Under the pieces are notes generated by a model that had not been told where the DNA came from, did no database searches, and saw only the letters and a program-made list of their open reading frames with translations. The position numbers and the translations under genes were made by a program. Shown one piece after another: positions 6,324-50,063 of a DNA stretch of 64,000 nucleotides. Numbering within the stretch: the stretch's first letter is position 1; each line of letters opens with the position of its first letter. This DNA is from Candidatus Nomurabacteria bacterium RIFCSPHIGHO2_12_FULL_42_19 (GTDB taxonomy: Bacteria; Patescibacteriota; Minisyncoccia; Phycocordibacterales; UBA9973), in assembly GCA_001786955.1 (NCBI GenBank), contig MFUM01000004.1, positions 4,457 to 68,456 of the forward strand, given 5' to 3'.

Positions 6324-7551
6324 TTAATTCTTCTAAAGAAACAATTTTTCCTTTCTCTTCAGCACGTTTTTTTAATTCTATTCCTTTTTCTTTTATACTC
6401 CGTAGAGATACAACCGCGCGAAATGGTATTCCAAGTAAATCCGCATCAGAAAACTTTTCTCCAGCCGATATGTTCATTCGGTCATCGAACAGGACTTCAA
6501 TACCCGCTTTCGATAAGCTTTTATAAACTCTATCAGCTTCTGCCGAAGTTGTTTCATCGTCCCCAAGCGCAAGCAAATGCACCTGAAATGGCGCTATAGA
6601 TTCCGGCCAAATTATACCTTTATCGTCGGCCAGAACCTCTACCACCGTGCCCAAGAGACGCCCCAGCCCTATGCCATAACAACCCATTAAAACAGGGTGT
6701 TTTTCCCCTTTTTCGTCTGTAAAGGATAAATCAAACGGCGCTGAGTATTTTGTTTTTAAGTCAAAAATATTCCCAACCTCAATAGCTCTTTGCTCGACTA
6801 ATTTTTCCTTTTTCAGATTAAGCTGGTTTAAAATCTCATCACTTAAAACCTCCTTATTCACGGCAACACCGCTCGCTTCATCAACATAGATAACATCTTC
6901 GCCCACGGGAGTAATGGTTTGAAATTCATGCGAATATTTTGCAAAAGTCCCGCCTGAAGCGAAAGTCATATAAGTCAGGTGCCCAATACCGACTCTGGAA
7001 AAAATAGTTTTATAAGCATCTTGCATTTTGCTGTAAAAATTTTCAAAGTCCCCAGCCGAAGTGTGAAAAGAATACATGTCTTTCATGATAAATTCCCTAC
7101 CACGCAACATTCCGGACTTGGCGCGAAGTTCCATTCTAAACTTATTTTGAATTTGATAAATATAGAGCGGAAAATCTTTATGCGAGGAAATATAATTTTT
7201 TAAAATTGGAACAACTATTTCTTCATGGGTGGGTCCCAGGGCAACTTCCCGACCGGAAGAATCTCCGACTTTGTATAAATCATCCATTGCCTGCCACCGG
7301 CCGGTTTTTTCCCAATTTTCTTTCGGCTGCATTGTGGACATCAGGACTTCCTGCCCACCGACTTTATCCATCTCTTCCCTGATTATATTTTCAATTTTCC
7401 TTAAAACCCGAAGCCCCAGCGGCAGGTAGCTATAAACTCCGGCCATTTCTTTGTGAACAAAACCCCCGCGAATAAGCAATTCGGCGTTTCTGGAAACTTC
7501 ATCCGCCGGACTCTCTTTTCTGGTCCTGGTAAAAAGCTTAGATTGTCTCAT
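6295..7551 (-). CDS. proS: prolyl-tRNA synthetase, short form apparently lacking the INS editing domain
   Basis: MRQSKLFTRTRKESPADEVSRNAELLIRGG N-terminus, class II motifs and a C-terminal anticodon-binding domain. About 418 aa. Confidence 0.9.
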   Translation of the reverse strand: MRQSKLFTRTRKESPADEVSRNAELLIRGGFVHKEMAGVYSYLPLGLRVLRKIENIIREEMDKVGGQEVLMSTMQPKENWEKTGRWQAMDDLYKVGDSSGREVALGPTHEEIVVPILKNYISSHKDFPLYIYQIQNKFRMELRAKSGMLRGREFIMKDMYSFHTSAGDFENFYSKMQDAYKTIFSRVGIGHLTYMTFASGGTFAKYSHEFQTITPVGEDVIYVDEASGVAVNKEVLSDEILNQLNLKKEKLVEQRAIEVGNIFDLKTKYSAPFDLSFTDEKGEKHPVLMGCYGIGLGRLLGTVVEVLADDKGIIWPESIAPFQVHLLALGDDETTSAEADRVYKSLSKAGIEVLFDDRMNISAGEKFSDADLLGIPFRAVVSLRSIKEKGIELKKRAEEKGKIVSLEELTRTVLGETS

Positions 7552-8398: not shown

Positions 8399-9214
8399 AT
8401 GTCTATTCAAATCACCACAGAGCAAATAAAAGGGCTCCGCGATATGACTGGCATTTCGGTAATGCAATGTAAGCGCGCCTTGGAAGAAGCCGAAGGCGAT
8501 ATAAAAAAAGCGCTGGCTATCTTAAAAAAAACAAGCTCGGATATTGCGCTTAAAAAAGTTAATCGTGAAGTTAAAGACGGAAAAGTTTGCATTAAAACAG
8601 GAAACCTGCCTCCTGCCCGCGCAGGCGGGGCGCAGGCAGGTAAAAAAGCAGTCTTGGTGTCTTTGCGCTGTGAGACCGATTTTGTCGCCAGAAATGAAGA
8701 CTTCGCTAAGCTGCTGGAAAATCTTGCGGAAAAAGCGATAAAAGTCGGAGTAGAAGAAATGAAAAAGGAGGCCAAAGACATGATTGATGCTATAATCCAG
8801 AAAACCGGAGAAAATATCCAGCTTGGCGACACATATGAAGTAAATGGAGGTATTTTGGGAAATTACGTGCATAATAATAAGACTGGAGTTATCGTAAGCT
8901 TGACAGGGGGTGATGCGGAACTTGCAAAAGATATAGCCATGCACATAACTGCCATGAAGCCGGAATATATTTCGCAAGACGAAATAACAGAAGATGCCAG
9001 AAAAATAATGAAAGAAATTTTCGAAAAAGAAATAGCCAGTATGGACAAGCCTGCGGAAATAAAAGAGAAAATGCTTCTCGGAAAAATGGCGGCCTATTTC
9101 AAAGAAAAAACCCTGCTTGACCAGGCATTCATAAAAAACGGGGAAGAAACAGTGGGCCAGCTCCTGGAAAAAGCCAAGGCAAAAATAAAAGAAGTAAAAG
9201 CTTGCTTAATATAA
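8399..9214 (+). CDS. tsf: elongation factor Ts
   Basis: LRDMTGISVMQCKRALEEAEGDIKKA (UBA-like N-terminus), CETDFVARNEDF, HITAMKPEY. Confidence 0.9.
   Translation: MSIQITTEQIKGLRDMTGISVMQCKRALEEAEGDIKKALAILKKTSSDIALKKVNREVKDGKVCIKTGNLPPARAGGAQAGKKAVLVSLRCETDFVARNEDFAKLLENLAEKAIKVGVEEMKKEAKDMIDAIIQKTGENIQLGDTYEVNGGILGNYVHNNKTGVIVSLTGGDAELAKDIAMHITAMKPEYISQDEITEDARKIMKEIFEKEIASMDKPAEIKEKMLLGKMAAYFKEKTLLDQAFIKNGEETVGQLLEKAKAKIKEVKACLI
8605..8640. repeat. family B GC-rich palindromic insert (in frame in tsf)
   Basis: CCTGCCTCCTGCCCGCGCAGGCGGGGCGCAGGCAGG encodes LPPARAGGAQAG. It shares the GCGCAGGCAGG core with 35110-35131, 39984-40020 and 49558-49585. Confidence 0.7.
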
Positions 9215-14213: not shown

Positions 14214-15950
14214 TTATTTACGATTATTTTTAATATTCTCTTTTTTCTTATTCAATTCATTTATTTCCTTCAAAATCTTTTTACCTATTTCCTCATTAGA
14301 CGTTTGTCTTAATTCCAGCATTTTCTTGCTTAACTCTTCATTAATATTTTCTTCTTCAAGATTCAGAAACATCTCCGTTATGCTATTTTCTAATTTTTCG
14401 TTGTTCGTATAAAATACTTCTGCTTCGAATATAAGATCTTGTTTGACAACTTCATACTTTTTATAAACTTCTCCTAATTTTTCAAAAATTGCCTTAAAGT
14501 CTATAGCGGACGTTGGACGTCCGAGTTCCGGACGTCCAACGTCCGCTAAGCTTTGCTGCCAAAGAGCGATGCCCAAGAGTTTTCGCTCTATGTAATCTTT
14601 TCTGTACATCTTGGTTAAGCTCTCTCCCGCTTCCTTAATTTCTTCTTTTTCATATCTGAACTCTTGCTCAATTTTTTTTAAATCATCCTGTAATGCATTT
14701 TGAGATATGCCCGAAAGGTCGCTAATCTTTTTTATAAAATGCATTTTTTCTATCGAGCTTTCGAGCGCATTTACAAACGGTAATATTGTGCCTTTTATTT
14801 CCCTACCGGCCTTACGGGTGTCATTGCTATAATTTTTTAAAACTTTACTTAAAAGAAATTCTATAACGTGTTTAGAGTTTTTAATGGCTTCGCGCCAGGC
14901 ATCCGAACCCGTCTTCCCAATCAAATCCGCCGGATCGACACCATCAGGCATATCCACCACTTTTACATCCATCCCCAAAGAAAGAGCGATTTTGCCGGCA
15001 CGAATGGTCGCACTTGCCCCCGCCTTATCAGCATCAAAAGCAAGCACTAGATTCTCCGATAGGCGCCGCACCAGTCCTAAATTGCTTACAACATTTTCTT
15101 TTGAAACAGTAGAATCCGATAAAGCTGTGCCGGATGTCGCGATTGTGTTTTTATATCCCGCTTGATGCGATAATATCAAATCCATCTGACCTTCCACTAA
15201 AACAGAGAAGTTGTTCTTGCGGATGGAATCCTTAGCCTTATCAATTCCGTAAAGCACCGCATTTTTGCTGAAAATGGGCGTCTCGGGAGAGTTTAAATAT
15301 TTCGGTTCTCCTTCCCCTGTAATTCTTCCCGAAAACGCTATAACTCTTCCGCTTGAATCATTCATGGGAAACATAATTCTATTGCGAAAACGATCATAGT
15401 ATCCTTTCTCCGTTTTTTTAATTAGCCCGGCACGCTCTATTTCTAAATCACTAAAACCTGTCAACTTCAAGTGTTCATAAAGCGTCCGCCAGTCATCCTT
15501 CGCAAATCCAATACCAAAATCTTTGATTGTTTTTTCGCTCAGTCCTCGAGATTTTAAATATTCTATTTGTTTCGTTTCTAAGTTAGAAATAAAGAACTTC
15601 TCTGCTTTCTCCATCGCCCTGTATAATTTTTCTTTTTCGCTTTCCGCTTCTTTCATTTCTTTGCTGTAAGCCTTAAGAGGCACTCCGGCCCTATCTGCAA
15701 GAAGTTTTAATGCGCCTTTAAAATCAAGCCCTTCAAATTCCTCGACAAAGGTAAAAATATCACCCGACGCCCCGCAGCCAAAACAGTAATAAGTGCCGCG
15801 GTCGGGAGAAATGAAAAACGAAGGGGTTTTTTCATTGTGGAACGGGCATTTCGCCTTCAGGTTTACGCCTGTCTTCTCGAGCTTTATATAGGAAGAGACT
15901 ACTTCTTCAATCGATAGCCTCTCCTTAATTTTTTGTACGGGGGAATTCAT
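14214..15950 (-). CDS. dnaG: DNA primase
   Basis: Zinc finger [11 protein letters not shown]...CFGCG and a TOPRIM domain ([16 protein letters not shown]). Confidence 0.95.
14506..14546. repeat. family D perfect 18-bp inverted repeat, in frame in dnaG
   Basis: GCGGACGTTGGACGTCCG-agttc-CGGACGTCCAACGTCCGC encodes [14 protein letters not shown]. Confidence 0.7.
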
Positions 15951-23501: not shown

Positions 23502-24236
23502 TTATCTATTTTTCTTCCATTCCTCTATTTTTTTGTGGTTTCCAGAGAGTAAAACTTTCGGAACTTTGTAATTTTTATTCTTATATTTTAAAACTTCCGG
23601 GCGGGTGTAAACTTCACTACTAGAGACTCGTTCTTCTTCTAGTGATTCATATTTACCCAAAACCCTGGGAATCTGGCGAGAAATTGAGTCTATTAAAACC
23701 ATCGCCGGTAATTCGCCTCCGGTTAAGACATAATCCCCTATTGAAATATCTTCTGCCTTAAATATCTTTTTGACCCGCATATCTATGCCTTCATAACGGC
23801 CGGAAATCAAAATAATATCGGTGTATTTTTTTACGGAATTTTTTGCATATGCCGTATTAAATTTTTTACCGGATGGAGAAAAATTTATTATTTTAATTCT
23901 AGAGCGTTTAGAAAGTGTTCTTGCGAATGGTTGACGTTGCGTAGTAGGAAATCCTGAGCGAGAACACTTTCTAAGAGCGTATTCAATAGCCTTTAGCATC
24001 GGCTCGGCTCTCATCACCATTCCCGGCCCTCCGCCGTAAGGCTTATCATCTACCGGGCGATACCCATTGTCTTTAACCCTCCTCCGCTTAAAAGCTTCGG
24101 ACGGGCGAGTAAAATCCCGCGGATTGTAAAATTTCACTTCTATCAGCTTGTTCTTCAGAGCCCGTCCGACAATAGACTCATTTAGGTATGAACTGAACAT
24201 TTCTGGGAATATGGTAATAATGTGAAATTTAATCAT
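23502..24236 (-). CDS. trmD: tRNA (guanine37-N1)-methyltransferase
   Basis: ITIFPEMF, YGGGPGMVM, GRYEGID, IGDYVLTGGELPA. Confidence 0.9.
   Translation of the reverse strand: MIKFHIITIFPEMFSSYLNESIVGRALKNKLIEVKFYNPRDFTRPSEAFKRRRVKDNGYRPVDDKPYGGGPGMVMRAEPMLKAIEYALRKCSRSGFPTTQRQPFARTLSKRSRIKIINFSPSGKKFNTAYAKNSVKKYTDIILISGRYEGIDMRVKKIFKAEDISIGDYVLTGGELPAMVLIDSISRQIPRVLGKYESLEEERVSSSEVYTRPEVLKYKNKNYKVPKVLLSGNHKKIEEWKKNR
23908..23974. repeat. family E hairpin element, in frame in trmD
   Basis: 14-bp inverted repeat TTAGAAAGTGTTCT / AGAACACTTTCTAA around the core TGCGAATGGTTGACGTTGCGTAGTAGGAAATCCTGAGCG. Flanked by the direct repeat AGAGCGT. Sister copy at 38708-38769. Confidence 0.7.
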
Positions 24237-24347: not shown

Positions 24348-24689
24348 CTAGATTCCCTTAAGGTCTTCCATTGCTTGGTCCACAGTCTTGAGCGTTGGGG
24401 CGGAACTCATTGATCCCGCGGGTCTCTCGGGTCTCATACTCCCCGCCGGTTCGTTGATTTTCAGATTCACACGGGCATTGTTCTTCATGCCAATAATGCG
24501 GAGCAAGGTGCGGATAGCCTTCGCAGTATTACCCATCCTTCCGATAATCTTGCCCATGTCGGCAGGATTTACGGTAAGACTGATGAGCACACCCATTTCA
24601 TCCACCGTGCGATCGATTTTTACATCGTTCGGATTGTCTACGAGAGCTTTTACTACATACTCTAGAAATATCTTGTCGGCTTCTTCCAT
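24348..24689 (-). CDS. KH-domain RNA-binding protein (YlqC/UPF0109-like) with a repeat-containing tail
   Basis: GKIIGRMGNTAKAIRTLL KH motif, in the rpsP-trmD operon context. The tail carries a PAGSM duplication. Confidence 0.8.
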   Translation of the reverse strand: MEEADKIFLEYVVKALVDNPNDVKIDRTVDEMGVLISLTVNPADMGKIIGRMGNTAKAIRTLLRIIGMKNNARVNLKINEPAGSMRPERPAGSMSSAPTLKTVDQAMEDLKGI

Positions 24690-24771: not shown

Positions 24772-25080
24772 TTATTTTTTCATTTTCAACTCCTTTCTCT
24801 TTAGTGTCGGCTTCTTTTTCGGCAGCACATTAACTTTTTTCCCTTCAATGACCTTGTCGTGCACCAAGAAATTATGCATCGTGTCAGAACATTTCGCGCC
24901 TTGGGAAATCCAATACTTTATCCGGTCAGCTATCAAGTTTTTCTCCCCGGCTTTTGGATTATAGGTGCCGAGTATTTCCAAAAACTTTCCACTCTTGGTG
25001 CTATTTTTTGAATCGGTCAAAACAGCCCGAAATGACGGATCATTTTTCCTGCCTATTCTCTGAAGCCTTATCTTTAACAT
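24772..25080 (-). CDS. rpsP: 30S ribosomal protein S16
   Basis: MLKIRLQRIGRKNDPSFRAVLTDS N-terminus. Confidence 0.9.
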   Translation of the reverse strand: MLKIRLQRIGRKNDPSFRAVLTDSKNSTKSGKFLEILGTYNPKAGEKNLIADRIKYWISQGAKCSDTMHNFLVHDKVIEGKKVNVLPKKKPTLKRKELKMKK

Positions 25081-25109
25081 GCAGTGAGTCTAACATAAAT
25101 TATATAAAA

Positions 25110-25138
25110 TGCAATCCGCCCCTATTTTATGCTATATT
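25110..25138 (+). promoter_or_regulatory. promoter TGCAAT-17-TGcTATATT, 7 nt before the rnr ATG (leaderless-type)
   Basis: -10 at 25133-25138, ATG at 25146. Confidence 0.45.
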
Positions 25139-25145
25139 TAAAAGA

Positions 25146-27167
25146 ATGAAGGAATCTAAAAACAAATTGCAAGGTATTATTTCCATCTCTTCAAAAGGCA
25201 CAGGCTATGTGGCAACCGGAGAAGTGAAGAATAAGGGCCAGGACCCGGAAATTGATTTCCAGCATTTAAATACCGCCCTGCACGGAGATATGGTAGAGAT
25301 AATCTTGCACCCGAAAGGTAAAAATCGCCAAACTGCTGAAGTTTCAAAAATAATATCGCGCGCAAAAATGAATTTCGCGGGAGTTCTGGAAGAAGAAAAC
25401 AAAATGTTCTTCCTGAAACCGGACGATACAAAAATGTATACAGATATTCTAATCCCAACCAAGTTTTTAAATAATGCGAAAGTTGGACAAAAGGTTTTTG
25501 TGGAAATAATTTCATGGAAAGATCCCCACAAGGCTCCGGAAGGAAAAGTAATAAAAGTTTTAGGCCGTCCGGGAGACAATGATACTGAAATGGAAAGTAT
25601 TGCGATAGAAAAAGGCTTTGATGCGAAACTTCCGCATAAAGTGGAAGAAGAAGCAAGGAAAATAAAGCAAAACGGCATTAAAGAAACCGACTATGCCGGA
25701 CGCAGAGATTTTCGCAAAACCCTGACCTTCACTATTGACCCCTCGGATGCGAAAGATTTTGATGATGCGATATCTTTCAGATTCCTCCCCTCCTTAAATA
25801 AGGAGGGGGCAGGGGGTGGTAATTCAAAAGACCACCCCGCCTCCGGCACCCCTCCTAAAAAAGGAGGGGAAGAGCAATATGAAGTCGGCATACACATCGC
25901 CGATGTCTCGCATTATGTAAAAATCGGCAGTGCTTTAGATGAAGAAGCGCGAGAAAGAGGAACTTCGGTATATTTGGTAGATAGGACGATACCAATGCTG
26001 CCGGAAACGCTTTCTAATGATTTGTGCTCTCTGGTGCCAAATAAAGACCGGCTTACTATGAGCGCAGTATTTATCATAGATAAAAATGCTCATGTAAAAA
26101 GCAAATGGTTCGGGCGCACGGTTATACATTCAAAAAAAAGATTTACTTACGAAGAAGCCGAGGAGTTAATAAAAAAATCCGCTGCGCCGTTCCATAAAGA
26201 ACTTTTTATCTTGAACAGCTTGGCAAAAAAATTAACCGGGGAAAGATTTGCGCAGGGCGCAATATCGCTTGACCAGGAAGAAGTAAAATTTGTTTTGGAT
26301 AAAAATGGAGTGCCGTTGAAAGTAATAAAAAAAGAGCGCGGCGATTCAAACAGGCTGATTGAGGAATTTATGCTCCTGGCAAATAAAAAAGTGGCGGAGG
26401 TCTTGTCTCCAAAAAATATAAAGGGTGTGAAAGATGAAGGCGTATCCATATACCGAGTGCACGATCTGCCGAGTAAGGAAAAAATGGCCGATCTGGCGTT
26501 TTTTTTGCGAAGTTTGGGACATAGAGTCTCCTTGCAGAACGGCCTTATCCCGACATATGAAATAAATAAGCTTCTAGAGAGTTTGGCCGGCAAAAATGAA
26601 GAAGATACGGTGCATCGCGCAGTTATCCGTTCTATGGCTAAAGCGCTTTATTCCACCAAAAATATCGGGCATTACGGTCTGGCTTTTCAATATTATACTC
26701 ACTTCACTTCCCCGATTAGGCGCTATCCGGACATCATGGTGCACAGACTTCTGGAAAAATTCCTCTCTGGCAAAAAAATAAAAAAGGAGGATTTAAAAGA
26801 GAAATTAATCGAATATGAAAAAATCGCCCTAAATGCATCCGAACAGGAAAAACGCGCCGCAGATGCCGAACGAGCTTCCATAAAATATAAACAAGTGGAA
26901 TATATGTCCAGATATCTGGGAAAAAGCTTCGACGGGGTAATCAGCGGGATAACCGAGTGGGGCATGTATGTGGAAGAACTAGAGACAAAATGCGAAGGTT
27001 TGGTGCGGGTACGTGATATGAATGACGATTTTTATATTTTCAATGAAAAAAAATTGGAATTAACCGGACAAAAAAAGAAAAAAAAGTACAGGCTCGGCGG
27101 CCGTGTCAAAATAAAAGTAAAATCGGTTGATTTGGAGAGAAAAACGATAGATTATATATTGACATGA
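25146..27167 (+). CDS. rnr: ribonuclease R
   Basis: RNB domain motifs (TIDPSDAKDFDDAIS, HIADVSHYV, YSTKNIGHYGLA..YTHFTSPIRRYPD) and a C-terminal S1 domain. The 24954 extension is rejected. Confidence 0.9.
   Translation: MKESKNKLQGIISISSKGTGYVATGEVKNKGQDPEIDFQHLNTALHGDMVEIILHPKGKNRQTAEVSKIISRAKMNFAGVLEEENKMFFLKPDDTKMYTDILIPTKFLNNAKVGQKVFVEIISWKDPHKAPEGKVIKVLGRPGDNDTEMESIAIEKGFDAKLPHKVEEEARKIKQNGIKETDYAGRRDFRKTLTFTIDPSDAKDFDDAISFRFLPSLNKEGAGGGNSKDHPASGTPPKKGGEEQYEVGIHIADVSHYVKIGSALDEEARERGTSVYLVDRTIPMLPETLSNDLCSLVPNKDRLTMSAVFIIDKNAHVKSKWFGRTVIHSKKRFTYEEAEELIKKSAAPFHKELFILNSLAKKLTGERFAQGAISLDQEEVKFVLDKNGVPLKVIKKERGDSNRLIEEFMLLANKKVAEVLSPKNIKGVKDEGVSIYRVHDLPSKEKMADLAFFLRSLGHRVSLQNGLIPTYEINKLLESLAGKNEEDTVHRAVIRSMAKALYSTKNIGHYGLAFQYYTHFTSPIRRYPDIMVHRLLEKFLSGKKIKKEDLKEKLIEYEKIALNASEQEKRAADAERASIKYKQVEYMSRYLGKSFDGVISGITEWGMYVEELETKCEGLVRVRDMNDDFYIFNEKKLELTGQKKKKKYRLGGRVKIKVKSVDLERKTIDYILT
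25784..25870 (+). repeat. family A element (modules Y then X), in frame in rnr
   Basis: CCTCCCCTCCTTaaatAAGGAGGGGGCAGGGGGTGGTaattcaaaagACCACCCCGCCTCCGGCACCCCTCCTaaaaaAGGAGGGG. A 30-nt stretch is identical to pheS 40782-40826. Confidence 0.8.
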
Positions 27168-33075: not shown

Positions 33076-33133
33076 ACCTCACCCCCGACCCCTCTCCTTA
33101 TCAAGGAGAGGGGTGCCAAAGGCGGGGTGAGGT
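33076..33133 (-). repeat. family A module Y-like nested hairpin, intergenic (between rpmF and nusB)
   Basis: Outer stem ACCTCACCCC/GGGGTGAGGT. Inner stem CCCCTCTCC-ttatcaa-GGAGAGGGG. Confidence 0.65.
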
Positions 33134-38412: not shown

Positions 38413-40269
38413 TTACCGCACTTGCCAACCATTATTCTCCTTGATTTTATTGGTTATTTGAGTCATAACTGCATTTATTTCCGCATCTGTAAGAGTCCTA
38501 TCAAAAGACTGGAAAACTACCCTAAAAGCATAAGAGATTTTATCGTCCTTTTTAAACTCATCAAAGAGTTCCGGGCCACGAATTGCAAGACTTCCGGCAT
38601 TATTTTTTATAATTTTTTCTACATCTTTACTTTTAACTCCCTCCGGCACCCAGACGGCAATATCGCGTGCGATAAAAGGAAACAAGGACCACATCTTAAA
38701 AGCTCCGCCTGTGTGCTTTTGCGAACGGTGACGTTGCGAAGCAGGATATTCCTGAGCAAAAGCATCAGGCGAGGCTGATTTACAAAATTCTTCAAGACTC
38801 ATTTCTTTTACTTCTTTTTTATTTCCATAAGCCACATTCATTTCTTCCCCGCTCTTTTTAAACACCGTTCCAATTTCAAAAATTTTTATTTCGTCCATCC
38901 CCAACAAAGGCACGTTGAGTTGGTTTAATTTCAAACTTTCCTTCAGTCCGTCAGTCAGATTCGTCCGCAAAAATTTTTTATCCGAAGCGCTCTGCATCAC
39001 TTCCACTTCCCCACTATTACAAAAAGTATAAGTCATTACTTCACTATATCCTTCGCCGAGCAATTTATTTCTCGCCCAGGAAATCTTCGCATAAGTTTCA
39101 TTTACTTTTGTTTTAAAATTAATTTTTGGTATTTTTCCTTTTACTTTGTCATAGCCAATAATCCTTCCGATTTCTTCTGCCATATCTTCCTCAATTACTA
39201 AATCAAGCCGCATCGGTGGCACGGTGATTACGTATTCTTCTCCCCCTGCTAAGGGGGAGTGCCCATCGGGCGAGGGGGTCTTTGTATATTCAAAGTTATA
39301 TCTTTTCAAAATATCTTCCACTTGAGACACAGAAATGTCCAAACCAAGAATTTTTGAAATTTTTTCCACCGAGAAAGAAAGCTTTCTGATCTCCTGTTTT
39401 TGGGGATAGACATCGACAATGTTTTCAAAAATAGCTTCCGGACACATTTCTAAAATAAGCGCCGATAATTCCAGCATAGCGTGCGGGCCAAGTTCCGGAG
39501 ATAAATCGTTTTCAAAGCGCTTGCGTGCGTCCGTAAATATATTCAAAGCCTGCGCGGTTTTTCTTACGGAAGTTGGATTAAAATTAGCAACTTCCAGAAT
39601 TATATCTTTTGTATTATTATCTACTTCCGCAATTTTCCCGCCCTTGATGCCAGCAATGGCTAAGACATTCTTATCGTCCGAAATGACCATATTTGAAGAT
39701 TTGAACTTTATTTCTTTATTGTCCAGGGTGGTCATCTCCTCGCCGTCTTTACCGTTTCGGACAATTATGTCGCCCTGTATTTTATCCAAATCAAAAGCAT
39801 GTGCGGGCTGACCGCAATCAAACATCACAATATTCGCCGCATCTACCACATTATTTATGCTTCTCTGCCCTATTGACTCCAGATGCTTTATGACCCATTC
39901 CGGACTGGTGCCAATTTTAATATTCTTTACAATTCTCCCCATATATCTTCTACATTTATCTGATTGGACATCAATTTTTAATTCTGCCTGCCCCGCCGGA
40001 GCCTTGGGCGCAGGCGGGGGAATTTTATACTTCGGAGCAGGATCAACATACTTTATATTTAAAAGTGAAGCGAGTTCACGCGCCACGCCCTGGTGGCTAA
40101 GTAAATCATGCGCGCGGTTTGGCAAGATTTTCAAATCAAAAATATTATCATCCCCTTTTTTCTCTAAACTCTCAACTTCACAAAGATGGTAATTAAAAAC
40201 ATCCACAAATTTTTCTGCATCAGGTGCTTCCGGTATATACCATTTGAGCCAATTGTAAGAAATCAACAT
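38413..40269 (-). CDS. pheT: phenylalanyl-tRNA synthetase beta subunit (short form)
   Basis: B3/4, B5 and FDX-ACB-like C-terminal regions. Directly downstream of pheS. Confidence 0.9.
   Translation of the reverse strand: MLISYNWLKWYIPEAPDAEKFVDVFNYHLCEVESLEKKGDDNIFDLKILPNRAHDLLSHQGVARELASLLNIKYVDPAPKYKIPPPAPKAPAGQAELKIDVQSDKCRRYMGRIVKNIKIGTSPEWVIKHLESIGQRSINNVVDAANIVMFDCGQPAHAFDLDKIQGDIIVRNGKDGEEMTTLDNKEIKFKSSNMVISDDKNVLAIAGIKGGKIAEVDNNTKDIILEVANFNPTSVRKTAQALNIFTDARKRFENDLSPELGPHAMLELSALILEMCPEAIFENIVDVYPQKQEIRKLSFSVEKISKILGLDISVSQVEDILKRYNFEYTKTPSPDGHSPLAGGEEYVITVPPMRLDLVIEEDMAEEIGRIIGYDKVKGKIPKINFKTKVNETYAKISWARNKLLGEGYSEVMTYTFCNSGEVEVMQSASDKKFLRTNLTDGLKESLKLNQLNVPLLGMDEIKIFEIGTVFKKSGEEMNVAYGNKKEVKEMSLEEFCKSASPDAFAQEYPASQRHRSQKHTGGAFKMWSLFPFIARDIAVWVPEGVKSKDVEKIIKNNAGSLAIRGPELFDEFKKDDKISYAFRVVFQSFDRTLTDAEINAVMTQITNKIKENNGWQVR
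38708..38769. repeat. family E hairpin element, in frame in pheT
   Basis: TGCTTTTGC / GCAAAAGCA arms around the core TGCGAACGGTGACGTTGCGAAGCAGGATATTCCTGAGC. Compare trmD 23908-23974. Confidence 0.65.
39237..39280 (-). repeat. family A module X copy, in frame in pheT
   Basis: The coding strand GACCCCCTCGCCCGATGGGCACTCCCCCTTAGCAGGGGGAGAAG encodes TPSPDGHSPLAGGEE. Confidence 0.65.
39984..40020. repeat. family B-like GC-rich insert, in frame in pheT
   Basis: CTGCCTGCCCCGCCggagccttgggcgcaGGCGGGGG encodes PPPAPKAPAGQAE. Confidence 0.55.
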
Positions 40270-40280
40270 AAATTAAGTTA

Positions 40281-41072
40281 TTAAAACTGATTGAGGCGTA
40301 AATCTCCCTGATAAAAAAGTCTAACATCCGGAATACCCCATTTAATCATAGCAATACGGTCCAATCCTCCGCCGAAAGCAAAACCTTGGTATTTTTTAGG
40401 GTCCAAGCCGCAATTTTTGAGTACATTTGGGTGTAAAACACCTGAACCCATCATCTCAAGCCACTTCCCTTTGAACTTGGCGAAAACTTCCAGAGATGGT
40501 TCGGTAAAAGGGAAAAAACTGGGGCGAAATTCTACCTCCACATCATCACTCAACATTTTTTTGTAAAAATGGGTTAATACGCCCTTCAAATCAGCAAGGG
40601 AAACATTTTCTCCCACCATTGCTCCGTCTATCTGATAAAATTGCATTTCGTGCGTTGCATCCGTAGCTTCGTTGCGGAAAACTTTTCCGATGGAAATAAA
40701 AGCGGCTGGCAATCTGCCGTCTTTGCCCGCTTGCTCAATCGCGCGGGCGGTTACGGTCGTCGTATGTGTTCGCAACACAGATTTTGAATTACCACCCCCT
40801 GCCCCCTCCTTATCAAGGCGGGGAGGATTCTTTTCTCCTCCTGCCTGAGGAGGAGTGCCCGAAGGACGAGGTGGTTCTTTTATCCAAAATGTATCCTGCA
40901 TATCCAGCGCCGGATGGTCTTTCGAAAAATTCAAGGCGTAAAAGTTATACCAGTCGCTCTCCAGCTCCGGCCCGGTCGCGATTTCAAAACCAAGCTCCGA
41001 AAAAGCCCGATAAGCCTCCTCGGCTAACAGAGAAAGCGGATGTATTGTGCCCTTTTTTATGTCTTCGTTCAT
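40281..41072 (-). CDS. pheS: phenylalanyl-tRNA synthetase alpha subunit (catalytic core only)
   Basis: Class II motifs (LRTHTT, FRNEATDATH, GFAFGGGLDRIAM). The N-terminal coiled coil is absent. Confidence 0.9.
   Translation of the reverse strand: MNEDIKKGTIHPLSLLAEEAYRAFSELGFEIATGPELESDWYNFYALNFSKDHPALDMQDTFWIKEPPRPSGTPPQAGGEKNPPRLDKEGAGGGNSKSVLRTHTTTVTARAIEQAGKDGRLPAAFISIGKVFRNEATDATHEMQFYQIDGAMVGENVSLADLKGVLTHFYKKMLSDDVEVEFRPSFFPFTEPSLEVFAKFKGKWLEMMGSGVLHPNVLKNCGLDPKKYQGFAFGGGLDRIAMIKWGIPDVRLFYQGDLRLNQF
40782..40875 (-). repeat. family A element (modules X then Y), in frame in pheS
   Basis: The coding strand ACCACCTCGTCCTTCGGGCACTCCTCCTCAGGCAGGAGGAGAAAAGAATCCTCCCCGCCTTGATAAGGAGGGGGCAGGGGGTGGTAATTCAAAA encodes PPRPSGTPPQAGGEKNPPRLDKEGAGGGNSK. 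Confidence 0.8.
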
Positions 41073-44818: not shown

Positions 44819-47014
44819 TTATAACATACTTAAAAATTCTTTCTCGCTTAATATTTTTACACCCAGCTTTTCGGCAACTTTAAGCTTGGAGCCCGGGTCC
44901 GCTCCGGCTACGATATAGGAAGTATTTTTTGAGACGGAACCCGCGACTTTCCCTCCGAGAGCCAGGATTCTTTCTTTAGCAATTTCTCGGGACATTTGGG
45001 AAAGCGTCCCGGTCAAAACGAAATGTAATTCGGTAAATTTGTCGGCTTTCTTTTTTTCCGCTCTTTCCACGATTACGCCATTTCTTTGCAATTTTTTTAT
45101 GAAATTCAAATTATTTTTATTATTAAAAAAATCATAAACGCTTTTTGATACAGCCGGGCCGATGTTTTCTATACTATCTATCTCAGCAAGGACTCCCCTT
45201 GCTGAAGTTATTAATTTTTCCAGAGTGCCAAAGTGTAGCGCTAAATCTCTTGCTGTTTCCTCCCCCACATGCAGGATTCCGAGCGCCCACAGAAAGCGTG
45301 AAAAAGGGATTTTCTTTTTATTTTTTATTTCATTGATTATGTTTTCCGCCGATTTTTCCCCAAAGCGTTCCAGGAGCGCTATATCTTCTTTTTTAAGGGT
45401 GAAAATGTCGGCTGCGTCGGTAATGAGCCCTTCGTCCTTGAATCTTCTCAGTATTTTCGGGCCTAATTCATAAATTTCAAAGACAGAAACAAAATGCTCT
45501 AAATACCTTTCGTTTTTTGCCGGGCATTTAGGATTGCTGCAATAATGAGCGACAGAGATATTCTCCAGCTCGCAAGATTTCTGAGTCGCGTAAGTCCCAC
45601 CCGGTACCCCGGGAAGGGTCAAGCGCGAAGAAATCTCGTGAGCCGAAGAATCCCCCATCTTTTTCTTCCTAACTTTTCCTCCGCAGGCCGGGCATTTGTC
45701 CGGCATTTTGAATTTTTTTTCTTTGCCTGTCCGCATCCGAATCAGCACCTCCACTACTTTCGGTATCACATCGCCGGCTTTTTCTATCACGACCGTATCC
45801 CCGATACGCAAATCAAGGCGCTCTATCTGGTCCATATTATGGAGAGTAGCCTTGGACACCCGGGAACCCGCCACCAGCGTCGGCTCAAAAAGAGCGAGCG
45901 GTGTCAATACACCGGTACGCCCGACATTTACCTTTATATCCTTTACTATTGTTGTCGCTCTTTCCGCCGGATATTTGAATGCCACCATAAAGCGCGGCGC
46001 CTTGCCGACCACCCCTAGTGTCTCCTGTAATTTCAAATCGTCCACCGAGACAACGACGCCGTCCGTGCCGTAGAGAAAATCGGGCCTGATTTTTTCAAAT
46101 TTCTTTATGAAAGTAAACACTTCATTCATATTAGCGCACAGAGCCTCCAATTTCTCAACTTTAAATCCAATCCTGCGGAGCATTTGATGTTTTTCGGAGT
46201 GGGTTTGCATAGCCGAATCATGAATTTTCTGAGTCGCGTAAGTCCCACCCCGTACTCGGGGAAGGGTCAAGCGCGAAGAAAATTCATGATTCGGCGTAGC
46301 CTCGGCTATATCGTAAGCAAAAAAATCCAATTCCCTTTTGGCGGCTAATTTTGGATCCAGCTGCCGCAAACTTCCTGCCGCGGCATTTCGGGTATTGGCA
46401 AAAAGGGGTTTTCCTTTTTTCTCATTTTCTTTATTCAATTTAACGAGCATTTCTTTGCTCAAAAGCGCTTCTCCGCGGATTTCCAGGTGCGGAAGGTATG
46501 GTTTTTGGAGAAGAAGTGGAATTGAATGTATGGTTTTGAGATTTTGGGTTATGTCTTCCCCAATTAATCCGTCTCCTCTCGTTGCGCCGCGCATAAACTT
46601 GCCATTTTCATAAACAAGCGAAACTGCCAACCCGTCAAACTTGACTTCGCAAAAATAATTAAATTTCGCGCGCGCAGGTAAAAGCTTTTTGATTCTTGTT
46701 TCCCACTCATATAATTCTGTCTCACTAAAAGCATCATTAAGAGAAAGCATGCGGGTTTTGTGCTGAACTTTTACAAATTTATTAAGCGGTTTGCCGGCTA
46801 CTCTGTTTTCCGGAGCATTTAAATCGTTAAATTCGGGGTATTTTTTCAAAAGCTCTTTAAGCTCGTGAGTGAGAGAATCGTAAACATCGTCGGTTACACC
46901 GGGGGCGTTTTGGGTATGATATAAATCACGCAAACGCGCGATTTCTTTTCGTAATTTTTTTACCCGCTTGGATTCGGCGAGGCTGGTTCTTTTTTTATCT
47001 TCCACCTCTTTCAT
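44819..47014 (-). CDS. ligA: NAD-dependent DNA ligase
   Basis: Adenylation motif CEVKFDGLA, OB fold, Zn finger CPACG...CSNPKCPAK, HhH and BRCT domains. About 60 aa longer than usual because of two inserts. Confidence 0.95.
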   Translation of the reverse strand: MKEVEDKKRTSLAESKRVKKLRKEIARLRDLYHTQNAPGVTDDVYDSLTHELKELLKKYPEFNDLNAPENRVAGKPLNKFVKVQHKTRMLSLNDAFSETELYEWETRIKKLLPARAKFNYFCEVKFDGLAVSLVYENGKFMRGATRGDGLIGEDITQNLKTIHSIPLLLQKPYLPHLEIRGEALLSKEMLVKLNKENEKKGKPLFANTRNAAAGSLRQLDPKLAAKRELDFFAYDIAEATPNHEFSSRLTLPRVRGGTYATQKIHDSAMQTHSEKHQMLRRIGFKVEKLEALCANMNEVFTFIKKFEKIRPDFLYGTDGVVVSVDDLKLQETLGVVGKAPRFMVAFKYPAERATTIVKDIKVNVGRTGVLTPLALFEPTLVAGSRVSKATLHNMDQIERLDLRIGDTVVIEKAGDVIPKVVEVLIRMRTGKEKKFKMPDKCPACGGKVRKKKMGDSSAHEISSRLTLPGVPGGTYATQKSCELENISVAHYCSNPKCPAKNERYLEHFVSVFEIYELGPKILRRFKDEGLITDAADIFTLKKEDIALLERFGEKSAENIINEIKNKKKIPFSRFLWALGILHVGEETARDLALHFGTLEKLITSARGVLAEIDSIENIGPAVSKSVYDFFNNKNNLNFIKKLQRNGVIVERAEKKKADKFTELHFVLTGTLSQMSREIAKERILALGGKVAGSVSKNTSYIVAGADPGSKLKVAEKLGVKILSEKEFLSML
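45568..45642 (-). repeat. family C hairpin element copy 1, in frame in the ligA Zn finger (75 nt)
   Basis: Outer arms GCTCGCAAGATTTC/GAAATCTCGTGAGC. Core TTCTGAGTCGCGTAAGTCCCACCCGGTACCCCGGGAAGGGTCAAGCGCGAAGAAA. Confidence 0.8.
46212..46295 (-). repeat. family C hairpin element copy 2, in frame in the ligA adenylation region (84 nt)
   Basis: Perfect 17-bp arms GCCGAATCATGAATTTT/AAAATTCATGATTCGGC. The core differs from copy 1 at 3 positions. Confidence 0.8.
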
Positions 47015-49238: not shown

Positions 49239-50063
49239 CTAAAAAAGACGCAATTCAAAAAGAAACGCCAAGAGCGCGCCTAAAACCAGATATGGAGCAA
49301 AGGGAATTTCGCTTTTTATTCCGTATTTTTTAGAAAAAACAACAAGAGAAAGACCGACAATGGCCCCAAGCCAGAAAGCGACCACAAGGCCGGAGAATGC
49401 GCGCGCGAGCCCAAGCAGCCATCCCAAGCCGACTGCCAGTTTGGCATCCCCCAGCCCCATCCAAGTTCCGGAAGACACGAGCCAAAATAAATAAAAAGGT
49501 AAAGCAATCAAGAAGCCGGACAAAAATTCCAAAATTGAAGGCATGTGCGGATAAAAACCTGCCTGCGCCCAGCCTGCGCTGGCAGAAGACAGGCCAGAAT
49601 TGTTAAAAAAGAATAAGCCGATAAAACCAAGAGCGCCTAAGGCAAAAGCGAGCGAGTCGGGGATTATTTTATGCCGGAGGTCGTAGACGGCAATAACCAC
49701 CAGAAGCGCGAATATCGCGGCATAATAAGCATAAGCGATAATAAATGCGGGAGTAAAAAAACTAAACTGTCCGCCCAGGGCGGAAAACTTTAAAAAGAGC
49801 GCCGCAAAAATCAGGCCGGTCGCCAGCTCGACCAAAGGATAGGAAATTGAGATTCTTGTTTTGCAGGTTCGGCATCTACCTCCCAAAACAAAAAAACTTG
49901 CGAGCGGGACAAGCTCATACCAGCAAAGAGTATTCTGACAGGACATACAGGCGCTTCTCCCGCCGAAGGATCTCTCGGTGTTCAGCCGGGCAATGACAAC
50001 ATTTAAAAAACTTCCGATAATCAGGCCAAAAAAAAAGAAAATAATTGTAACTACAATGATCAT
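49239..50063 (-). CDS. pilD: prepilin peptidase (A24 family)
   Basis: N-terminal Cys motif CMSC...CRTC and a catalytic Asp context (GLGDAKL). Confidence 0.9.
   Translation of the reverse strand: MIIVVTIIFFFFGLIIGSFLNVVIARLNTERSFGGRSACMSCQNTLCWYELVPLASFFVLGGRCRTCKTRISISYPLVELATGLIFAALFLKFSALGGQFSFFTPAFIIAYAYYAAIFALLVVIAVYDLRHKIIPDSLAFALGALGFIGLFFFNNSGLSSASAGWAQAGFYPHMPSILEFLSGFLIALPFYLFWLVSSGTWMGLGDAKLAVGLGWLLGLARAFSGLVVAFWLGAIVGLSLVVFSKKYGIKSEIPFAPYLVLGALLAFLFELRLF
49558..49585. repeat. family B GC-rich insert, in frame in pilD
   Basis: CCTGCCTGCGCCCAGCCTGCGCTGGCAG. pilD peptide SASAGWAQAG. Confidence 0.55.

Follow-up and report, generated by a model that had tools for sequence, protein, structure and literature searches.

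Inside the trmD gene of a Candidatus Nomurabacteria bacterium, a tiny groundwater member of the Candidate Phyla Radiation (CPR), lies a quasi-palindromic segment that is read through in frame. What is this segment, and what keeps a hairpin-forming sequence inside a housekeeping gene? The 64-kb stretch of DNA that contains it (the window) had received an initial annotation, in which the segment was an inserted member of a dispersed repeat family, family E, bounded by a terminal inverted repeat and possibly flanked by a target-site duplication, AGAGCGT. We can say with high confidence that family E is a translated, in-frame, quasi-palindromic repeat family of one CPR lineage, with a conserved centre, locus-specific arms that covary, and a centre that flips in orientation. 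By analogy with known repeats the centre may be the recognition module of a putative trans-acting factor that binds DNA or hairpins and by which the copies are spread or maintained, a reading that we favour on balance.

The palindrome is exact over its inner part. TTAGAAAGTGTTCT (23908-23921) is the perfect reverse complement of AGAACACTTTCTAA (23961-23974) with a 39-nt centre between them, and AGAGCGT is present on both flanks, both as originally annotated. Folding extended the hairpin outward to the pairs 23904-23978 and 23905-23977. The strand carrying the core in its family sense is the - strand at trmD, the same as the gene. The complementary strand of family-E copies always folds better; for the trmD copy the predicted energies are -33.4 kcal/mol (+ strand, z = -4.2) and -23.2 kcal/mol (- strand, z = -3.9). 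The window contains three perfect local inverted repeats that reach 14 nt or more and have a loop of at most 60 nt, versus 0.1 expected from first-order Markov simulations. An Rfam search of the window at the gathering threshold returned three tRNAs alone and no family matching the element, and a search of the element region at E <= 10 gave sub-threshold noise alone. Coordinates are collected in Table 1.

Table 1. Family-E features in the window, their host gene and the flanking repeats (strand left empty where none applies).
Feature	Position	Strand	Basis or remark
Host gene trmD, 244 aa; element adds residues ~88-113	23502..24236	-	PF01746, PDB alignment, structure model
Whole quasi-palindromic element in trmD (extended hairpin, 75 bases)	23904..23978	-	Fold, family architecture
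Left arm (+ strand sequence); 3' arm in gene sense, encodes ..ARTLSKR	23904..23921		Contains perfect 14-nt repeat 23908-23921
Right arm (+ strand sequence); 5' arm in gene sense, encodes ALRKCS	23961..23978		Contains perfect 14-nt repeat 23961-23974
Conserved family-E centre GCTCAGGATTTCCTACTACGCAACGTCAACCATTCGC, translated (R)SGFPTTQRQPF(A)	23923..23959	-	nhmmer profile match, 45.2 bits
AACC (gene sense), 3' half of internal helix GG(A)YY/RRCC	23929..23932	-	Dinucleotide covaries with 23950-23951
GGATT (gene sense), 5' half of internal helix GG(A)YY/RRCC	23950..23954	-	Covariation
AGAGCGT, left copy	23901..23907		Overlaps outer stem pairs
AGAGCGT, right copy	23974..23980		Overlaps arm by one base and outer stem pairs
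Second family-E copy, in pheT; subfamily with +1/-1 indels	38701..38776	-	Centre 38721-38757; folding, profile search

The TrmD protein is 100% identical to a protein of Candidatus Nomurabacteria bacterium RIFCSPLOWO2, on which PF01746 is recorded. Its alignment to Escherichia coli TrmD (PDB 1P9P; E = 2e-43) is broken exactly at the insert, where residues 88-113 (26 aa) replace E. coli residues 81-87 (7 aa). Orthologues free of the insert have 215-220 aa, compared with 244 aa here. An AlphaFold model (58 orthologues) gives residues 94-110 a predicted local distance difference test score (pLDDT) below 50, between a confident helix (77-90) and a confident strand (114-125). According to the model the insert is a loop inside the N-terminal domain. 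The lengthening of TrmD proposed in the initial annotation is real; what was called a TrmD linker there is this loop and not the interdomain linker.

Among the 120 closest TrmD orthologues, about half have a short loop, that is, an empty site. About a dozen carry the family-E peptide CSRSG[FS]P..QR[QR]P[FL].KT.., and at least 10 further insert families, unrelated to it, use this loop as well. The site is empty in the nearest relative (P0016; 88.8% amino acid identity outside the insert), and the next relative has an insert of a different family. DNA of an empty site was taken for comparison from P0022. Two orthologues retain half-element remnants: P0099 keeps the 5' arm, and in P0068 the 3' arm survives together with the 3' end of the centre. 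Because relatives have empty sites, other families use the loop and half elements remain, the trmD segment is a lineage-specific insert that has been gained and lost. In agreement with the initial annotation, it is one inserted copy of a dispersed family and has no counterpart in the TrmD of other taxa or of the closest relative.

The other inserts at this loop (equivalent to 23895-23985; P0004-P0115) include QKFSSGPRFSS..ARPFRK, TNYELRITNK, PHPRPLSI.KKNGEGWMRSRRGE, STPSRKRATPQEGN and SKKTKPKAKSRSELRSA. Judged from peptides only, the QKFSSGPR...ARPFRK family apparently has the reverse design, with a variable middle between conserved ends that would pair as GC-rich arms. TrmD has a second lineage-variable insert, TRPSEAFKRRRVKD, at residues ~43-56 (~24068-24110), where model confidence is low; most orthologues have a shorter IKAPK-N there and few share the longer form.

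The window holds one more copy of family E, in pheT (open reading frame, ORF, 38413-40269, - strand), and the two have the same orientation relative to their genes. Their centres (23922-23960 and 38720-38758) are identical at 33/40 columns (82.5%, where ~85% had been claimed), with two compensating 1-nt indels. The arms of the pheT copy (GCTCCGCCTGTGTGCTTTTGC/GCAAAAGCATCAGGCGAGGC) bear no relation to the trmD arms, a difference already recorded in the annotation. The pheT copy folds at -38.4 kcal/mol (z = -4.6). A 20-nt degenerate core pattern matched the window at the trmD and pheT sites only, versus 0.04 matches expected, and a core profile search of the window likewise found only these two.

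To take a census of the core, the pattern CTCAGGAN{2,4}TCCTNNNNNGCAACGTC was run on one genome per species in GTDB. It returned 41 loci. Genomes of Paceibacterota, Nomurabacteria or Patescibacteria account for ~30 of them, and in each of these a long hairpin encloses the core. The other 11/41 are in unrelated GC-rich phyla and have no hairpin; ~13 chance matches had been estimated beforehand, by hand arithmetic from the information content of the pattern and the size of the collection. A metagenome scan added 59 loci, and with the core profile the census came to ~70 non-redundant copies, confirming the family. True copies are confined to Paceibacteria-type (CPR) genomes, with roughly 10-20 copies per ~1-Mb genome. 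No matches were found in the IMG/VR, phage and plasmid collections, and a phage or plasmid vector was accordingly rejected. All ~70 copies are short, and profile searching of the census copies did not place the core within any longer element. A search of the literature available found no description of such repeats in CPR, Patescibacteria or Parcubacteria.

Every copy has a common centre of ~35 nt, CTCAGGA-YY-TCCTGC-NNN-GCAACGTC-RR-CCATTC. The inner stem around it is usually a short T-run paired with an A-run (GCTTTTGC/GCAAAAGC or TTTTTTC/GAAAAAA). The outer arms are 14-32 bp long with a locus-specific sequence, and the whole element measures 65-85 bp.

Family E is found almost exclusively in coding sequence. 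Within 18 genes, 69/70 copies lie inside long ORFs, stop-free and frame-preserving, 57 of them in sense and 12 in antisense orientation. Sense copies use two of the three frames, giving QD[FL]LLRNV[ND]HS or SG[FS]PA.QR[QR]PF, and the antisense peptide is FSNGDVAKQDILRK. The family consensus is open in 3/3 sense frames and 1/3 antisense frames, so random insertion followed by an open-frame filter predicts a ratio of ~3:1. Counted by locus, 15 are sense-only and 3 have both orientations, close to that prediction. At ~8% stops per random codon in AT-rich DNA, a 25-codon insert would be open about 1 time in 8. Because the open frame is universal in spite of this expectation, the copies are probably translated with the host protein.

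Host genes encode functions in RNA metabolism and translation (TrmD, Tgt, TsaD, MnmA, CCA enzyme, Dus, RsmA, LeuRS, PheT, YchF and a NifS-like desulfurase) and in DNA replication and repair (LigA, UvrA, UvrC, UvrD and PolA), as well as Mur ligase and PurH. Pfam confirmed Mur ligase, YchF, UvrA, PurH, PolA, UvrD and Dus, and TrmD was confirmed by PF01746; the remaining names are presumptive, as we assigned them from recognised motifs. The sole intergenic copy (L084, 2300-2375) is placed between convergent genes, immediately 3' of a tRNA gene. With its A-run, stem and T-run it resembles a bidirectional intrinsic terminator. In the CCA-adding enzyme gene of L015 (~6400-6520) a partial sense remnant (..GQRHHSQKYTGSA) adjoins a complete antisense copy, which indicates repeated events at neighbouring sites of one gene.

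Since the copies are open and apparently translated, conservation of the centre could reflect selection on the peptide. In the DNA of seven trmD orthologues, third-codon identity is 0.90 in the centre versus 0.54 at synonymous third positions elsewhere in the gene. Over ten host genes, identity is 0.83-0.94 for the centre, 0.43-0.54 for synonymous third positions, which are saturated, and 0.31-0.92 for the outer arms, with both arms below 0.55 at 7/10 loci. Copies in either sense frame or in antisense retain the same centre nucleotides, and conservation is highest (0.94) in the UvrD copies, which are antisense. Because nucleotides are conserved beyond neutral sites in every frame and in both orientations, the alignments suggest that the centre is constrained as DNA, in duplex form or as an extruded hairpin on either strand, rather than as peptide or mRNA. 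An adaptive insertion, with an extra peptide that functions in TrmD and the other enzymes and whose selection explains the conservation, would suit the polar, basic character of the peptides and the predominance of nucleic-acid enzymes among the hosts. However, the two sense frames and one antisense frame in use turn the same DNA into unrelated peptides, third codon positions are conserved like the others, the insert is predicted to be disordered, and the closest TrmD orthologue does without it. We regard this explanation as hardly credible.

The hairpins might alternatively act in RNA, as a regulatory or processing site, a small-RNA target, a self-cleaving or spliced intervening sequence or a signal for translational bypass. 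Strong predicted hairpins, covarying stems with a conserved loop as in functional RNAs, and the sense orientation of most copies all fit such a role. Nevertheless 12 copies are antisense, among them the best conserved, and the sense:antisense ratio fits the simple open-frame filter. All 69 intragenic copies are stop-free and frame-preserving, which would be needless for a segment that is removed; an intron, ribozyme or bypass element was rejected since all intragenic copies keep the frame open and some are inverted. Rfam gave no match, and compensations rarely pass through G-U. Among the inner-stem mismatches of 68 copies, which are not independent, 45 are of the A.C type and 13 of the G.U type on the core-sense strand, an asymmetry that makes the complementary strand the better folder; strand-specific G-U pairing was not retained as a sign of RNA. 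An RNA-level element is very unlikely.

If the centre is kept as DNA, how are the arms kept complementary when their sequences diverge? In a gapless alignment of the seven trmD copies 14/26 stem pairs have changed on both sides, a number reached by 0/500 shuffles and far above that in slid controls. Most arm changes in this alignment are double-sided, transversions included (21 double-sided versus 3 G-U). Across 68 copies, 9/10 inner-stem pairs covary. In P0010 and P0036 the arms form 24-26 perfect pairs, and the palindrome extends into the codons of a host helix, E-K/R-A-L, that are present at empty sites. Because the palindrome enters these host codons, it is the opposite arm that was made complementary to the host sequence. 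In RsmA, UvrD and the CCA-enzyme gene the centre is found in either orientation at one site in different species, with the T-run/A-run unmoved. Orientation fixed to the replication strand was rejected, as the antisense copies likewise run against the local GC skew and the direction of the genes around them.

Template switching during replication homogenises the arms of inverted repeats and inverts their spacers in coding genes (PMC8604942), and can create and maintain hairpins (PMC8794818). Arm homogenisation, double-sided multi-nucleotide changes, spacer inversion and parallel events in coding sequences have all been attributed to it (PMC8604942, PMC8794818, PMC7202029). Family E shows both arm homogenisation and spacer inversion, suggesting by analogy that template switching during replication is what keeps its arms paired, extends them and flips them. 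The likeness is confined to arm behaviour and flipped centres. Template-switch mutagenesis is a mutational process, not an element, and leaves the origin, spread and conservation of the shared centre unexplained.

The centre has a symmetry of its own. The dinucleotide after GGA is reverse-complementary to the one after GTC (TT/AA in 30 copies, TC/GA in 14, CT/AG in 2, with 2 exceptions). The pairs of this internal helix are UA 31/CG 15 and UA 65/CG 2, and in the tip helix UGC-NNN-GCA, whose triloop varies, one change is compensated. Since these internal covarying pairs fall on the axis about which the entire element is symmetric, it has the form of a rod-like quasi-palindrome, in which the internal loops (CUCA/AUUC, UCC/ACGUC and a bulged A) are asymmetric and conserved. 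A competing mini-hairpin, CAGG/CCUG, is invariant and carries no covariation evidence.

Centres also appear to travel between copies. At LeuRS, YchF, TsaD, CCA and PheT a haplotype with linked +1/-1 indels (GGAATATCC ... GTCACC) occurs beside the standard one, and the arms are homologous at all five loci with both centre haplotypes; the window pheT copy is of the indel type. Because it is implausible that the same double indel arose five times, the haplotypes suggest ectopic exchange of centre sequence between copies.

This exchange bears on the possibility that nothing is constrained at all. The copies would then be young or recently overwritten, their conservation a product of recency and ascertainment, and the hairpins passive products of template switching with a centre that is not read. 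Ascertainment by a conserved pattern, centre exchange between loci, high turnover at the TrmD loop and a second family in the window with the same centre/arm architecture are all in its favour. The trmD copies, however, have common locus-specific inner arms (TGTTCTCGC/GCAAAAACA), so they descend from one old insertion whose centre is still kept. By population-genetic reasoning, species do not diverge more slowly when their copies exchange sequence without bias. Furthermore, invariance is greatest at the unpaired, asymmetric positions, whereas template switching would be expected to remove asymmetry. We consider an unread centre doubtful.

Could the element have arrived as a classical miniature transposon, bounded by terminal repeats, moved by cut and paste and duplicating a 7-bp target, AGAGCGT? 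The trmD copy does combine a perfect 14-nt inverted repeat with a 7-nt direct repeat, an exact 7-nt repeat at one fixed register is unlikely by chance, and a few other copies have flanking repeats of 6-7 nt. Yet the supposed terminal repeat differs at every locus, the centre alone being common to the family. The two AGAGCGT copies overlap the outermost G-C pairs of the extended hairpin and are 73 nt apart, not a multiple of 3; therefore removal of one copy together with the element would frameshift trmD. At these positions the trmD orthologues have a self-complementary segment of the AAGCGCTT or AGCGCGCGCT type, or no repeat. Such segments, being self-complementary, appear both inverted and direct and so mimic a direct repeat. 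Across the family (62-64 copies) permutation of flanks across loci gave a weak excess (P = 0.002), which was gone against shifted same-locus controls. The longest shared flanking word averaged 3.52 versus 3.03-3.42 in controls, and words of at least 6 nt occurred in 5 copies versus 0-5. With short flanking repeats no more frequent than in these controls (64 copies), the target-site duplication was rejected. No parent insertion sequence was seen for the census copies, and the miniature-transposon reading, to which we give very little credence, is largely refuted. In sum, the AGAGCGT repeat is not reproduced in orthologous copies, and the absence of the segment from other taxa's TrmD agrees with its being an insert.

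[quoted passage not shown] They differ in having terminal inverted repeats common to the whole family, where family E has arms that change with each locus and an inner T-run/A-run stem that is only semi-conserved. They also have target-site duplications, for which the family-E flanks show no excess over shifted controls, and an insertion sequence that is related to them and shares their ends; the family-E core was seen in short copies.

What remains to be explained is a centre that is conserved as DNA, apparently moves between hairpins and stays at its site. For REPINs, built from repetitive extragenic palindromic (REP) sequences, the presumed reader is a trans-acting enzyme, present in single copy, that recognises them as single-stranded hairpins, and the association of REPINs with RAYT, a Y1 transposase, persists (PMC3116915; 10.1101/2021.07.10.451892). 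Family E shares with REP sequences and REPINs the properties of hairpin-forming, non-autonomous repeats that persist vertically for a long time and are conserved. It differs in location, as REP sequences are extragenic and 1/70 family-E copies is intergenic. The pattern of conservation is also reversed. REP stems are conserved and the loop or spacer is variable, while in family E the centre is the more conserved part and the outer arms the more variable.

We therefore picture family E, with the modest preference given above for a trans-acting reader, as follows. The family unit would be the ~35-nt centre with its short T-run/A-run inner stem, and the outer arms would belong to the locus. The element would behave in vivo as DNA that forms a rod-like hairpin and not as a cut-and-paste transposon. 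Housekeeping enzymes would tolerate the copies in permissive loops at their surface, as translated parts of the protein, TrmD gaining ~22-26 disordered residues. Template switching between the arms would homogenise and extend them and invert the spacer, and copies would exchange centre sequence ectopically. The arrangement would amount to a REP/RAYT-like partnership inside coding sequence, with a protein outcome like that of the Rickettsia palindromic elements.

Several points weigh against a trans-acting reader. Neither such a factor nor an autonomous parent element came to light. The search for copies relied on a conserved core pattern or on recognisable peptides, which leaves decayed copies under-represented and overstates conservation; there are diverged versions of trmD (P0095, P0118, P0020). 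Covariation can come from template switching alone and is no proof of selection for structure. The symmetric rod fold (GG(A)YY/RRCC) is 1-6 kcal/mol less stable than the fold with the CAGG/CCUG mini-hairpin, and for this reason the internal covariation may record pairing during replication and not a stable structure. The hosts are skewed to nucleic-acid enzymes (16/18), which the model explains by survivorship alone. Translation was deduced from open frames, not observed. Finally, selfish DNA does not usually hold orthologous positions while synonymous sites diverge to saturation, and a host function accounts for such stability just as well.

That last point leads to a host-beneficial or drive-maintained DNA site. 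Here the ~35-nt centre, on an extrudable hairpin or in duplex, would be bound by the cell for chromosome organisation or segregation, for replication-linked functions, or as an uptake-type signal kept by biased uptake and recombination. Such sites would be placed in tolerant loops of conserved genes since the genomes have almost no intergenic space. DNA uptake sequences (DUS) and uptake signal sequences (USS) of Neisseriaceae and Pasteurellaceae are a precedent, as they are conserved regardless of frame and orientation inside core genes, genome-maintenance genes included. They are often paired as inverted repeats, have lineage 'dialects' and are maintained by drive rather than by a coding function. 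The conservation of family E in all frames and both orientations, its positions shared by species with saturated synonymous sites, its low and steady copy number and its restriction to core genes, DNA-repair genes included, are what a host site predicts. In addition, different centre variants recur per locus across genomes; with genome membership known for a minority, this is compatible with dialects and does not show them. Conversely, the element is patchy even among close TrmD relatives and leaves deletion remnants, many unrelated insert families use the same TrmD loop, and several centre variants occur within one genome. Density is a further difficulty. DUS and USS are 10-12 bp long and occur about once per kb, compared with a 35-nt centre plus hairpin once per 30-70 kb, and known uptake signals are all far denser than that. 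To our knowledge no binding protein is known, nor any uptake bias in these bacteria. A host site, the strongest of the competing explanations, is in our judgement rather unlikely.

Where the trans-acting reader would take family E beyond REP sequences is in its protein outcome, for which the nearest relatives in kind are the Rickettsia palindromic elements (RPEs). RPEs are often inserted in frame in housekeeping genes whose orthologues elsewhere have no insert (PMC10969869). Like family E they are short, dispersed palindromic repeats of a reduced genome that become part of the proteins of unrelated housekeeping genes through in-frame translation. Family E likewise is a palindromic repeat in frame in 18 unrelated coding genes, its translation being read from open frames. 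RPE inserts are said to occupy positions compatible with the protein fold, and family E in TrmD occupies a low-confidence loop. The two are set apart by phylum (Rickettsia) and by size and design as described, the comparison being one of descriptions only. RPEs measure ~100-150 bp against 65-85 bp, and about half of them are intragenic against 69/70. In family E alone is the centre the family sequence, with arms that are locus-specific and a centre that flips at a fixed site, and its positions are conserved between species with saturated synonymous sites.

Family E is not the only repeat of this design in the window. A second family has two copies (45561-45650 and 46212-46295), both inside ORF 44819-47014 on the - strand. 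Its GC-rich centre of ~50 nt, TGAGTCGCGTAAGTCCCACCC.GTAC.C.GGGAAGGGTCAAGCGCGAAG, is 91% identical between the copies, and its long arms are locus-specific (AGCCGAATCATGAATTTTC/GAAAATTCATGATTCGGC in one copy, GCTCGCAAGATTTC/GAAATCTCGTGAGC in the other). Because this second family has the same design, the combination of common centre and private arms appears to be general in this genome. A tentative extension, which we put forward with clear reservations, is that family E and at least one similarly designed family of this genome form an undescribed CPR class of intragenic hairpin sites, whose asymmetric centre a dedicated trans-acting protein would recognise at the level of DNA. The candidate reader would be a domesticated hairpin-specific recombinase that copies centres between hairpins, or a chromosome-function or uptake factor. 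If this were true, a genome nearly without intergenic DNA would be storing cis-acting DNA signals in tolerant loops of essential proteins.

The CPR makes up a large share of bacterial diversity, and its conserved proteins serve phylogeny and annotation. In-frame repeats that add 20-30 residues to many core enzymes, vary among close relatives and flip affect gene calling, alignments and structure prediction. After Rickettsia, family E is a second independent case of reduced genomes tolerating repeats in essential genes. Simple decay of selfish DNA predicts neither conservation of the centre at the DNA level nor insertion sites that stay stable across species with saturated synonymous sites. Whether gene-dense genomes hide DNA signals or a REP/RAYT-like partnership in coding sequence thereby becomes a testable question, and the copies are a large natural data set on how template switching shapes protein loops.

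The window contains further GC-rich repeat families, at 25783-25873, 33083-33111 and 40782-40823, and at 8605-8641 and 49557-49593. In the first, a 32-nt stretch at 25798-25829 is 100% complementary to 40782-40813; this family at least lies inside an ORF (24954-27167), the product of which we take from the sequence to be RNase R. Judging from the peptide, the DNA of this family seems to recur in the TrmD loop of other species. The other GC-rich families consist of CCCC..CCTTATCAAGG.. units and of a CCTGCC-rich pair of 37-mers. One of the window's three perfect local inverted repeats, 14 nt long with a 17-nt spacer (GCGGACGTTGGACG / CGTCCAACGTCCGC), is at 14504-14548. At 24348-24440, the C-terminus of a KH-domain protein (ORF 24348-24689, - strand) has a GC content of 0.53-0.58 versus ~0.35 nearby. 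Its tail repeats a PAGSM motif (..EPAGSMRPERPAGSMSS..) and may be another short intragenic repeat.

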